In this document: one piece after another, positions 24,003-24,855 of the stretch
How the letters are laid out: each line of letters begins with the position of its first letter
How positions within the stretch are numbered: the first letter of the stretch is position 1
From: Escherichia coli
Lineage (GTDB): Bacteria > Pseudomonadota > Gammaproteobacteria > Enterobacterales > Enterobacteriaceae
Assembly: GCF_003334315.1 (NCBI RefSeq)
Contig: NZ_QOWR01000005.1
Strand: one strand, 5' to 3'
Length of the DNA: 64,000 nt
Translations under genes and position numbers: made by a program
Notes under the pieces: model-generated
What the model was told of the DNA's origin: nothing
The model's database searches: none
What the model saw: only the letters and a program-made list of their open reading frames with translations

Positions 24003-24312
24003 TATTCCTTGTTATACACATTACGAAAAATAAGACATTTAAGATCATCAAAAGAGGAAAGTAAATGTATTGCGTATAAAGGGATAGATTAAATTTATTA
24101 AAATTCACGCAGGGAATAATTTATAAAAATATATCATTACAACATATATATTAATTTTATATTTATTTCGCAGCCAAACAGGATAAACATCAGTCAGGAT
24201 AAAGACGTAAAATTTAAGATGAAAGAATATCTGCCGCTTTGATAATCCCAAACAGCAAAAGCATCCGACAGCGAAGTGCCGTTATGTTCTGTGAAAGTGG
24301 AGAAGGTAACCG

Positions 24313-24504
24313 CTAACGTTGTACCGGTGATTCGACGGAGAGTGTGGATTGCTGAGCTTCTTTTTTGCTCTGATGGTGCTGCCAGGCACCGACGGACGAG
24401 TAGATAAAACGGCCAAAGAAGAAGATAAAGCTGATGAGCAGTACGATACGGGTCATGCGACTGTTAAATCGGTGTCGTTTTCGCATACTGGTTGCCTGAC
24501 TCAC
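24313..24504 (-). CDS. yfgG: Small membrane protein YfgG
   Basis: 63 aa with one hydrophobic segment; sits inside an AT-rich intergenic island. Confidence 0.8.
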   Translation of the reverse strand: MSQATSMRKRHRFNSRMTRIVLLISFIFFFGRFIYSSVGAWQHHQSKKEAQQSTLSVESPVQR

Positions 24505-24714
24505 AAAAGGTTCCTTGAAGTATGTCCCACGCTGTGGACGGTACTTACATTAAGGCACAACAGGACAAAATGGTCAATTCTTCGTTATGTAAAAAAGCGT
24601 CAGTGGATACATATTTTAATGTTATGGAAGTTAATTTAATTATTTACAATGATGATGTAATAATGATGAATTAACATGATAAACGTAATAATTCATTAAT
24701 CAGGGTTATTTTGT

Positions 24715-24728
24715 TTGATATATATCAA
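24715..24728 (+). promoter_or_regulatory. Consensus FNR site (TTGAT-N4-ATCAA) of a class II promoter for pdeF
   Basis: Perfect TTGATatatATCAA; a -10 hexamer TAGAAT at 24750-24755 places the site centre at about -41.5. Confidence 0.6.
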
Positions 24729-24855
24729 TTGGTACTTTCATATGACACTTAGAATCAATGCTCTCTATAGTGATGAATAATCATCATTCGAAGTCAGGTG
24801 GGATGCCTGTCTGAATACACCTCCTTCAGGATGTGGGGGATTCTGCTGAGCATCT

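Follow-up and report, generated by a model that had tools for sequence, protein, structure and literature searches.

AT-rich DNA around yfgG in Escherichia coli: two regulatory spacers that are very probably H-NS-binding DNA, and a conserved pdeF leader element

Why is the stretch of about 850 bp between the Escherichia coli genes yfgH and pdeF so rich in A and T, and is it the remnant of a foreign element or DNA that serves a regulatory purpose? The preliminary description had treated positions 24003–24855 as a single AT-rich island around the small gene yfgG, and had offered both readings. We analysed this stretch within what we call the window, a 64,000-nucleotide segment of E. coli chromosome that is 99.45% identical to K-12 MG1655 and in which the gene identities and order (guaA, yfgI, yfgH, yfgG, pdeF, ppx) agree with annotated genomes. 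Window positions were converted to MG1655 coordinates through a BLAST alignment; indels exist elsewhere in the window. The marked AT-richness is borne out, since GC content is 0.363 across 24003–24855 and 0.521 for the window as a whole, and 100-bp sliding values across the 64 kb reach their minimum at 24069 (0.17), followed by 24631 and 62609 (0.18 each). It is not continuous, however, and the island resolves into two intergenic regions that are separated by a gene of ordinary composition (GC 0.495, GC3 0.56), as follows.

24003–24312, 310 bp, GC 0.306: spacer A, the yfgG 3' region and the AT-rich upstream region of the yfgHI operon.
24313–24504, minus strand: yfgG, encoding a 63-amino-acid small membrane protein of the DUF2633/YfgG family.
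24505–24855, 351 bp, GC 0.342: spacer B, the divergent yfgG/pdeF regulatory region, conserved across Enterobacteriaceae.

Intergenic DNA in the window averages GC 0.43–0.44 overall, and the other 24 spacers of at least 30 bp have a mean of 0.444 with a standard deviation of 0.071, so that spacer A lies about 1.9 and spacer B about 1.4 standard deviations low. They rank second and fourth lowest among the window's 26 spacers, and the yffB|ypfM spacer (62546–62920, 375 bp, GC 0.312) is as AT-rich as they are; relative to the spacers of this window they are thus extreme but not unique. Such values, together with the presence of H-NS genomic-SELEX sites in 36% of divergent spacers that have RpoD sites, which makes H-NS binding common at such places, would suit the view that long promoter spacers of E. 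coli are simply like this and that the composition plays no particular architectural part. We regard that view as improbable: the 100-bp stretches of lowest GC in the 64 kb fall within spacers A and B, AT-richness is kept in the core of spacer A where sequence is not (below), and in vivo H-NS regions of 2.1–4.6 kb are centred on the spacers and have a measured effect on FNR occupancy.

The two spacers are instead very probably regulatory DNA on which H-NS binds and nucleates. H-NS ChIP-chip of K-12, a different strain from the window's, grown in glucose minimal medium, places H-NS aerobically over 2624400–2628963 (U00096.2; window about 22853–27416) and anaerobically over 2626274–2628408 (window about 23408–25542), values that we took from the supplementary tables of that study (PMC3688515 Table S3). 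An in vitro H-NS genomic-SELEX site has also been flagged in the yfgF/yfgG spacer, yfgF being the older name of pdeF (PMC3946193). Loss of hns and stpA raises FNR occupancy at the yfgG/pdeF spacer significantly, from 0.35 in wild type to 1.68 (log2 IP/input; PMC3688515 Table S7), and yfgF is among the genes whose expression depends on O2 only in the hns/stpA strain (ratio 0.23; PMC3688515 Table S11). In K-12, then, H-NS coverage extends from yfgI to pdeF, and its removal together with StpA both increases FNR binding and reveals oxygen-dependent pdeF expression (PMC3688515). The same source lists nucleoid-protein overlap at the yfgF FNR site as "None" (PMC3688515 Table S6), which conflicts with the coordinates in its own Table S3. 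The suggestion that this is H-NS-bound regulatory DNA is thus backed by published K-12 ChIP-chip, SELEX and hns/stpA FNR occupancy data (PMC3688515, PMC3946193).

The high-affinity H-NS motif TCGATAAATT is not clearly enriched in the window (73 similar matches, with 56.6 +/- 7.3 expected). Spacer A has two matches with two mismatches and spacer B has none, and the sole perfect match in the window lies inside yfgI (23074–23083). IS elements often insert into H-NS-bound DNA. At this locus an IS1 lies in spacer A of a natural strain, and an IS5 landed in spacer B during experimental evolution, at about window position 24752 in gallium-evolved K-12 (PMC6928379). At the yfgG promoter sigma70 gives a strong ChIP-seq peak (2627279, height 11933; PMC3688515 Table S1), which shows that H-NS coverage is not blanket silencing.

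These observations suggest the following arrangement. H-NS would nucleate on both AT-rich spacers and spread over the rather AT-rich flanking genes, keeping pdeF and yfgHI low until FNR (in the absence of oxygen) or an envelope-stress regulator overcomes it, while the yfgG promoter would remain accessible under H-NS. Spacer B carries two promoters, that of yfgG (sigma70/sigmaS) and the class II, FNR-activated one of pdeF, as well as the pdeF leader. Spacer A contains the yfgG terminus together with the DNA that would control the stress-induced yfgHI operon from upstream. The AT-rich locus is real, ordinary and already known, in that the relevant measurements stand in published K-12 supplementary tables, and H-NS coating of AT-rich promoter DNA is of a textbook type, so there is little new in the AT-richness itself. 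The yfgG/pdeF locus appears only in the supplementary tables of PMC3688515 and is not discussed in its main text.

A close parallel is with H-NS-masked FNR sites such as those of hlyE and ttdR (Myers et al. 2013, PMC3688515). As at those sites, a multi-kilobase H-NS region lies over an AT-rich promoter, an FNR box of consensus quality is near -41.5, and deletion of hns and stpA gives more FNR occupancy and anaerobic induction. Unlike them, pdeF shows detectable FNR binding in wild type, with a peak in both strains, and the divergent yfgG promoter within the H-NS region is strongly occupied by sigma70. The elements of the pdeF promoter are these.

24715–24728, plus strand: FNR box TTGATatatATCAA, a perfect consensus, centred at 24721.5, which is 41.5 bp upstream of the predicted pdeF start.
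24742–24771, plus strand: a second sigma70-like sequence match, ATGACA-18-TATAGT.
24750–24755, plus strand: the pdeF -10 hexamer TAGAAT, in which T-A-N-A-A-T is invariant across genera.

The box consensus (TTGAT-N4-ATCAA) has no other perfect match in the window; the TTGA half of the box is kept in every genus, and so is TCAA wherever the alignment reaches. The box centre at 24721.5 and TAGAAT at 24750–24755, taken with the literature, would place the pdeF start at about 24763. According to PMC3718329, which cites Lacey 2010, anaerobic pdeF expression is FNR-activated and the promoter is class II and conserved in Salmonella; here the conservation of this architecture is extended from Salmonella to 12 genera. 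In K-12 an FNR ChIP-seq/ChIP-chip peak and site coincide with the box (PMC3688515 Tables S5/S6), and wild type cells in glucose minimal medium showed no FNR-dependent change in pdeF expression (PMC3688515 Table S9). With its box at -41.5, its TAGAAT -10 hexamer and no good -35, pdeF resembles class II FNR promoters such as that of yfiD, and its DNA shows nothing unusual for that class.

On the other side of spacer B, and at the far end of the gene, yfgG has the following features.

24266–24281, minus strand: weak terminator-like hairpin followed by a T-rich run, 3' of the yfgG stop (from a consensus scan and fold).
24524–24541, minus strand: 5' end of the yfgG mRNA with a 5'-terminal stem-loop (published start at about 24541).
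24549–24577, minus strand: yfgG promoter TTGACC-17-CTTAAT with a TGc extended -10, sigma70/sigmaS, read from the sequence.
24587–24627, no strand assigned: conserved blocks ATGTAAAAAAgCGTCAG and ACAT-N6-ATGTTAT, at -46 to -86 of the yfgG promoter.

The start corresponds to a published transcription start (2627275 in U00096.2), which is accompanied by a sigmaS-RNAP ChIP-seq region (PMC4447067), and the promoter has also been predicted elsewhere (PMC3946193). Across 16 sequences both of its hexamer blocks show little or no change, and the spacer between the hexamers varies. The upstream blocks are possibly a UP-like T-tract and a putative factor site, and a PgrR genomic-SELEX site lies somewhere in the yfgG/pdeF spacer (PMC5934670). 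At the extreme 5' end of the transcript most of the 16 sequences have GCCCR/YGGGC, for which Escherichia has GUCC/GGAC, a compensatory change. The energy z-scores of the folds examined at the locus, namely the pdeF leader (only -0.24), the yfgG 5' hairpin and the yfgG terminator, were -0.24, -0.36, +0.29 and -0.61, and none is significant.

Might the AT-rich spacers hide something else, such as an unannotated protein-coding gene? That the stretch carries only yfgG is right for the K-12 annotation, but PGAP adds one further open reading frame within it, which we judge not to be a gene.

24522–24674, plus strand: 50-codon open reading frame, PGAP hypothetical protein WP_000017552.1.

PGAP calls this protein in many E. 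coli genomes, and several open reading frames of 25–50 codons are present in both spacers. Substitutions in the 50-codon frame nevertheless fall 15/17/15 by codon position, with no third-position excess, whereas the yfgG control gives 9/0/32, the mark of purifying selection. The frame is shifted in Escherichia sp. E1V33 and has lost its stop codon in E. whittamii. It overlies the conserved promoter and 5' UTR blocks of yfgG, and this overlap explains its weak tblastn matches in other genera. A 48-codon frame lies in the core of spacer A, which retains only 61.5% identity among Escherichia species and contains indels. A hidden gene, in this frame or in those of spacer A, is therefore extremely unlikely, and an annotation artefact very likely accounts for the 50-amino-acid "hypothetical protein" of many E. 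coli genomes.

A small regulatory RNA encoded in the spacers is very unlikely as well. Long spacers beside small genes sometimes contain one, and spacer B does have conserved blocks upstream of both promoters; the two promoters and two 5' UTRs, however, account for all of the conserved blocks. A permissive Rfam 15 scan of 22500–25500 returned a single chance match, to a human lncRNA family (25 bits, E = 0.96). The scan for consensus promoters and terminators, which missed the minus-strand promoters that we read by eye and from conservation, gave counts equal to the shuffle expectation and no orphan promoter-plus-terminator pair, and literature searches on yfgG, yfgH and pdeF turned up no report of a small RNA at the locus.

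The pdeF leader is a different matter. The conserved element within it is the one previously unreported item at this locus, and its parts, all on the plus strand, are these.

24763–24855: pdeF 5' leader of about 93–94 nt, its start placed from the -10 hexamer and the position of the FNR box.
24769–24788: 5'-terminal hairpin of the leader, from the fold.
24797–24858: conserved structured leader element of about 60 nt, in all genera examined.
24801–24806 with 24850–24855: helix P1, which pairs with the 6 nt before the pdeF AUG.
24795–24809: alternative hairpin H1, mutually exclusive with P1.
24803–24814: mini-uORF AUG CCU GUC UGA, of 3 codons, starting inside a P1 strand.
24820–24824 with 24835–24839: hairpin P2, covarying.

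Among 18 distinct sequences P1 is 95% paired and six of its seven pairs are invariant; its strands, GGAUGC and GCAUCU (the latter directly upstream of the pdeF AUG), do not vary across genera. P2 has both-sided changes in three of its six pairs, and the covariation score of the leader is 0.076, compared with 0.035 in shuffles, none of 500 of which reaches 0.076. RNAalifold run on a plain MAFFT alignment of the leader gave only the invariant H1 and no covariation. We tentatively suggest, as a possibility rather than a favoured expectation, that the element at 24797–24858 is an undescribed cis-regulatory RNA that gates PdeF translation after the FNR/H-NS step. Since P1 pairs next to the AUG, it could hide the pdeF start region, which has no good Shine-Dalgarno sequence; H1, which forms with part of a P1 strand, would free the start. 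Candidates for throwing such a switch between P1 and H1 are CsrA, by binding two GGA loops, temperature, and ribosomes that initiate on the mini-ORF. If functional, the leader would mean that this anaerobic c-di-GMP phosphodiesterase is controlled after transcription as well.

CsrA is suggested by the loops themselves, as GGA is present in the loop of H1 (GGGAUGC) and in that of P2 (CAGGAUGU), about 28 nt apart, in all 18 distinct sequences. Leaders of mRNAs bound by CsrA, such as glgC, pgaA and ycdT/dgcT, have GGA in hairpin loops, and the CsrA SELEX consensus is RUACARGGAUGU. Both GGA loops of the pdeF leader resemble this consensus and are kept in every genus; unlike in CsrA-bound leaders, the weak Shine-Dalgarno sequence lies clear of both GGA motifs. 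The available supplements of the CsrA CLIP/transcriptome study do not include yfgF/pdeF, an absence that is weak evidence because pdeF is poorly expressed aerobically, and our literature search found no CsrA link to pdeF. The likeness to CsrA-regulated leaders may thus be taken as a lead and not as membership of that group.

What, then, of a foreign origin? On that reading the whole 850 bp, yfgG included, would be a horizontally acquired remnant and its AT-richness would reflect its source. The yfgHI genes do lend this some colour, for Escherichia and one other genus (L015) have them, Salmonella retains a decaying copy (the literature reports them in S. Typhi and not in Typhimurium), and they are missing from Citrobacter, Klebsiella aerogenes, Kluyvera, Enterobacter, Phytobacter, Atlantibacter, Leclercia and Pluralibacter. 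The interval from yfgG to guaA holds different cargo in nearly every genus, and yfgH has a low GC3 of 0.43. Against it, yfgG and spacer B adjoin pdeF-ppx-ppk in 12 of 12 enterobacterial genera, and the composition of yfgG is normal. Spacer B has about the same length throughout (~350 bp; 412 in Salmonella) and the same conserved blocks, and is AT-rich in all of them (GC 0.34–0.42, compared with locus values of 0.42–0.57, over 18 loci). We found no integrase, tRNA or flanking inverted repeats, no meaningful direct repeats and no annotated mobility genes, and 5425 of 5426 complete E. coli genomes have the segment, which makes it core and not a strain-variable feature. The 300 bp that follow yfgG in other genera are not AT-rich (GC 0.44–0.56), which indicates that the AT-rich DNA belongs to the upstream region of yfgH and is not a scar at the junction.

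An origin of the whole stretch by horizontal transfer is consequently unlikely. Synteny already indicates that yfgG, pdeF and spacer B were inherited vertically with the flanking core genes, and spacer B is, as judged from its conserved sequence, an ancient divergent control region. The proposal of older, horizontally acquired material fits the yfgHI side (24003–24312 and the genes leftward) and fails for yfgG and spacer B, given their conservation in 12 genera. Likewise, the yfgHI side resembles cases of xenogeneic silencing in its AT-rich upstream DNA, low basal expression, patchy distribution and location in a variable cargo slot, but differs in that yfgHI is core in E. coli and has neither mobility genes nor repeat borders, and in that yfgG and pdeF, with spacer B between them, are vertically conserved. 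The locus is thus a worked example of how a compositional "island" can be a composite, here an ancient, vertically inherited yfgG/pdeF promoter region beside the control region of a lineage-restricted yfgHI cassette in a cargo hotspot. Nor are yfgI, yfgH and yfgG still the least understood part of the window, as had been stated; that remark is dated, the YfgG protein having been linked to Ni/Co tolerance (PMC6338753), YfgH having been characterised (bioRxiv 10.64898/2025.12.22.696046) and the pdeF promoter likewise (PMC3718329).

Spacer A, finally, is the control side of yfgHI, with two features of its own.

24037–24065, minus strand: predicted yfgHI promoter TTTACT-17-TTAAAT (-35 at 24065–24060, -10 at 24042–24037), from which transcription would start near 24030.
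24108–24200, no strand assigned: fast-evolving AT-rich core of spacer A, in which composition is kept and sequence is not.

In an alignment of five Escherichia species the core has a mean pairwise identity of 61.5%, compared with 90.6% for the adjoining block that contains the predicted yfgHI promoter and 91.7% for spacer B, and yet its GC content stays at 0.26–0.30 in all five. In L015, where the context is different, the region upstream of yfgH is likewise AT-rich (GC 0.297); only the proximal ~62 bp align with E. coli, and within them the promoter hexamers and their 17-bp spacing are identical. With AT-richness held where sequence drifts, spacer A looks like composition-constrained regulatory DNA. 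Basal expression of yfgH is low and is strongly induced by outer-membrane stress, and YfgH has been described as an outer-membrane-stabilising lipoprotein (bioRxiv 10.64898/2025.12.22.696046). The AT-rich DNA beside yfgH would be a matter of yfgHI regulation and would bear on current work on YfgH as a stress-induced stabiliser of the outer membrane. A FlhDC genomic-SELEX peak lies in the core of spacer A at about 24182 (PMC9962212), and an E. coli yfgHI fusion showed no SdiA regulation in a study of SdiA. Our search for repeats at the locus found no inverted repeats and only three short two-copy direct repeats, which look like chance or Fur-box-like AT-rich words; a Fur site in them (12 of 19 matches by eye) was not credited. 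Descent of spacer A by deletion of an MscS-like gene was rejected as well, as tblastn against spacer A gave only chance matches (E at least 0.13). An MscS-like gene itself sits between yfgH and yfgG in L015 and adjoins yfgG in Kluyvera.

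The AT-rich DNA around yfgG lies in a well-conserved part of the E. coli chromosome. BLAST aligned the window to MG1655 positions 2589787-2653590 in reversed orientation, at 99.45% identity and with seven gap positions, none of them close to the feature. Of 5426 complete E. coli genomes, 5425 match a 2-kb query around the feature with 95-100% identity, and 5402 have at least 80% of it in one place. The genes concerned are as follows.

21259-22836, plus strand, guaA
22929-23468, minus strand, yfgI
23484-24002, minus strand, yfgH
24313-24504, minus strand, yfgG
24856-27099, plus strand, pdeF (also called yfgF)
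27138-28679, minus strand, ppx

The preliminary description had seen here a single AT-rich island of about 850 bp. The AT-richness is real, but it resides in two spacers, A (24003-24312; 310 bp, GC 0.306) and B (24505-24855; 351 bp, GC 0.342), split by yfgG, whose composition is ordinary (GC 0.495, GC3 0.56). The lowest-GC 100-bp windows in the 64 kb are at 24069 (0.17), 24631 (0.18) and 62609 (0.18). Spacers A and B have the second and fourth lowest GC among the window's 26 spacers of at least 30 bp, the remaining 24 of which average 0.444 (sd 0.071). They are extreme among local intergenic DNA, yet not unique; the yffB|ypfM spacer (62546-62920; 375 bp, GC 0.312) matches them in length and AT-richness.

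The suggestion that this is H-NS-bound regulatory DNA proved right, as two published K-12 data sets attest. We took the ChIP-chip enriched regions of Myers et al. 2013 (PMC3688515; K-12 in glucose minimal medium) and converted U00096.2 positions g by window = 24504 - (g - 2627312), checked on the pdeF start. The aerobic H-NS region 2624400-2628963 (window ~22853-27416) spans the guaA/yfgI spacer, yfgI, yfgH, spacer A, yfgG, spacer B and the whole of pdeF, and the anaerobic region is 2626274-2628408 (window ~23408-25542; both Table S3). Shimada et al. 2014 (PMC3946193) assign to the yfgF/yfgG spacer a genomic-SELEX site for H-NS and a site for the RpoD holoenzyme; the ypfM/yffB (62546-62920) and upp/purM (32598-32921) spacers are also H-NS SELEX-flagged there. 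H-NS binding at this locus is thus already documented for K-12, though solely in supplementary tables, and the feature as first described is real with nothing novel in it. The window's sole perfect match to the H-NS high-affinity motif TCGATAAATT is at 23074-23083 (plus strand), in the yfgI coding sequence, with a one-mismatch copy at 22925-22934; both fall within the published aerobic region.

Spacer B contains the divergent promoters of yfgG and pdeF, with the following elements.

24577-24572 and 24554-24549, minus strand, yfgG promoter read from the sequence: -35 TTGACC, 17-bp spacer, -10 CTTAAT
24715-24728, plus strand, FNR box TTGATatatATCAA, the window's only perfect FNR consensus
24750-24755, plus strand, pdeF -10 TAGAAT, which places the FNR box at -41.5
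24742-24771, plus strand, second sigma70-like match ATGACA-18-TATAGT, from a promoter scan and also in Shimada et al. (PMC3946193)
24797-24858, plus strand, pdeF leader element, from conservation, folding and a covariance model

The yfgG -10 is preceded by TGc, making it an extended -10, and an identical promoter was predicted by Shimada et al. (PMC3946193). ChIP-seq of sigmaS-RNAP gave a bound region at 2627100-2627399, with the yfgG transcription start at 2627275, window ~24541 (PMC4447067), and a strong anaerobic sigma70 ChIP-seq peak (height 11933) lies at 2627279 (PMC3688515). The segment 24715-24755 is the published class II FNR promoter of yfgF (PMC3718329, which cites Lacey 2010). In PMC3688515 the FNR ChIP-chip peak average at yfgF/yfgG is 0.35 in wild type vs 1.68 in hns/stpA, flagged significant (Table S7); yfgF shows O2-dependent expression solely in the hns/stpA mutant (ratio 0.23, Table S11, where a value under 1 stands for stronger expression without oxygen, as judged from known aerobic and anaerobic genes in those tables); and in wild type the yfgF FNR peak is without FNR-dependent expression change (Table S9). 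Table S6 of that paper is inconsistent at one point, in that it gives the nucleoid-protein overlap of the FNR site at 24715-24728 as 'None', though the site lies inside both Table S3 regions.

We compared pdeF/yfgG loci from Escherichia (five lineages), Salmonella, Citrobacter, Klebsiella aerogenes, Atlantibacter, [Enterobacter] lignolyticus, Pluralibacter, Leclercia, Enterobacter, Phytobacter, Kluyvera and another Enterobacteriaceae genus. Every locus has ppk-ppx-pdeF followed by divergent yfgG. Spacer B is 341-354 bp long (412 bp in Salmonella, through one insertion) with a GC of 0.34-0.42, vs 0.42-0.57 for whole loci. Conservation is complete or almost complete in the two hexamer blocks of the yfgG promoter, which flank a variable spacer, and likewise in the FNR half-sites, the TAnAAT -10, the leader block before pdeF and an upstream block, ATGTAAAA..CGTCAG. 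Since synteny, length, AT-richness and blocks are common to all compared genera, spacer B and yfgG are regulatory DNA of vertical descent and not of foreign origin. YfgG homologues (PF11119) number just 207 in a large protein collection, and the named matches are all from Enterobacteriaceae except one metagenome bin labelled Acinetobacter. The Tar receptor senses aspartate, Ni and Co. Tolerance of Ni/Co requires YfgG (PMC6338753), PdeF modulates aspartate taxis through its MASE1 domain, and at each locus examined yfgG and pdeF (24313-27099) are divergent neighbours; a functional link between YfgG, a small membrane protein, and the PdeF MASE1 sensor is conceivable.

An Rfam scan gave no match in the feature region. 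PGAP annotates a 50-aa 'hypothetical protein' (WP_000017552.1; 24522-24674, plus strand) in many E. coli genomes, overlying the yfgG promoter and UTR. A comparison of five Escherichia lineages gives it 15/17/15 substitutions at the three codon positions, vs 9/0/32 for yfgG; one lineage is frameshifted and another lacks the stop codon. From this pattern in sister species we judge the ORF to be non-coding, an annotation artefact. The 5' end of the yfgG mRNA can form a stem-loop (24524-24541, minus strand) in most sequences examined. Its strands are mostly GCCCR/YGGGC, with the compensatory variant GUCC/GGAC in Escherichia, and the hairpin might plausibly stabilise the mRNA.

Conservation of the final 60 nt ahead of the pdeF AUG exceeds that of the PdeF protein (53-74% identity outside Escherichia), and two blocks, GGUKGGAUGCCUGYCU and GCAUCUAUG, are invariant in 12 genera. 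Folded alone, the leader element takes one architecture in 18 of 18 distinct sequences. In this predicted fold helix P1 pairs GGAUGC (24801-24806) with GCAUCU (24850-24855), the 6 nt preceding the AUG, and closes a domain containing hairpin P2, made of a C-rich and a G-rich strand. P1 is part of the minimum-energy fold of 11 of 16 full-length leaders; an alternative hairpin, H1 (CAGGU-KGGAU-GCCUG), overlaps and excludes it. A covariance model was built from six Kluyvera-type sequences, and every locus was then aligned to this model. P1 (6 of 7 pairs invariant, 95% of cells paired) is uninformative by covariation because it never varies, and three of the six P2 pairs are changed on both sides, the strands being:

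CCUCC/GGGGG, this window
CCCUU/AAGGG, two other Escherichia lineages
CCCUC/GAGGG, Citrobacter
AUACCC/GGGUAU, Kluyvera

With an alignment that is itself fitted to the model, the covariation score is 0.076 vs 0.035 in shuffles (0 of 500 reach 0.076), and 92% of cells are paired vs 33-46% in slid controls. In stability the fold does not exceed that of shuffled sequence (z-scores -0.24 and -0.36), and 24797-24858 has no Rfam match. In every sequence the loops of H1 and P2 both display GGA, an arrangement resembling CsrA sites; literature and CLIP data gave no support for a CsrA link to this leader. A mini-ORF, AUG CCU GUC UGA (24803-24814, plus strand), begins inside P1; as read from the alignment, its length is 3 codons in 12 of the 16 sequences, 4 codons in Salmonella and 13-17 in two genera, and in Atlantibacter it is in frame with pdeF. 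A real regulatory role for the leader element seems to us possible and rather doubtful.

Spacer A has a different history. The yfgG-guaA interval (22837-24312) is a cargo hotspot across Enterobacteriaceae (loci L009-L020 and L083-L090 of our comparison set), empty in Citrobacter, where guaA adjoins yfgG at 112 bp, and occupied by yfgHI in Escherichia. Elsewhere it holds:

LysR regulator and MFS transporter
MscS-like channel
Phd/YefM-type antitoxin-like modules
ABC transporter
TrkH and inositol catabolism genes
chaperone-usher fimbriae

Among the compared loci yfgH and yfgI occur only in Escherichia, in another Enterobacteriaceae genus (L015) and, decaying, in Salmonella. In Salmonella enterica (L083/L084, 5326-6278) yfgH is a frameshifted pseudogene without its first 39 codons and upstream region. 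One lineage keeps yfgI whole; in another an ABC-transporter insertion truncates it after 27 codons. According to a published study, S. Typhi has the pair and Typhimurium does not. The origin as older horizontally acquired material that had been proposed would thus fit the yfgHI side only, patchy and in a cargo slot, and fails for the vertically inherited yfgG and spacer B. In genera with other cargo the 300 bp after yfgG have a GC of 0.44-0.56 and are not AT-rich, yet in L015, where yfgH has a different neighbour, its upstream 279 bp have a GC of 0.297. Spacer A belongs to yfgHI. The L015 and E. coli upstream regions can be aligned over the proximal ~62 bp only, and share a promoter-like motif, TTTACT-17-TTAAAT (24065-24037, minus strand). 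Within Escherichia the yfgH-proximal 105 bp are 90.6% identical, and the core at 24108-24200 is 61.5% identical, with indels, at a constant GC of 0.26-0.30. The core is thus constrained in composition, not in sequence, which suits binding by nucleoid proteins and speaks against its holding a gene or an sRNA. Basal expression of YfgH is low, and outer-membrane stress induces it strongly (bioRxiv 10.64898/2025.12.22.696046); an E. coli yfgHI fusion showed no SdiA response in a published study.

That spacer A is the scar of an MscS-like gene was rejected by tblastn against it, and a repeat search found no meaningful repeats at the feature. The annotated yfgH start is GTG at 24002; ATG at 23999 is better spaced from the AAGGA Shine-Dalgarno (6 vs 3 nt; 23997-24010, minus strand), and starting there yields the MKFKK lipoprotein signal peptide that is expected. 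In Escherichia sp. E1V33 an additional 4.8 kb (GC 0.367), bearing acyltransferase-like ORFs, lies between guaA and yfgI. E. coli strain B27 (NZ_AP027424.1; L001, 1-732) has a DUF262-domain gene, of a family defence-related in many cases, in guaA's place just outside yfgI, a further insertion at the hotspot. The single BLAST alignment to MG1655 ends at window 204, leaving 1-203 outside, so this strain apparently departs from K-12 between timR and ryfA. Finally, insertion sequences occur at three places in this small region: IS5 in the pdeF -10 region of gallium-evolved K-12 (window ~24752; PMC6928379), two IS1 copies in spacer A of strain TA8571 (L091, 723-2448) and IS3 within yfgH of strain FELIX_MS533 (L092, 576-1738).
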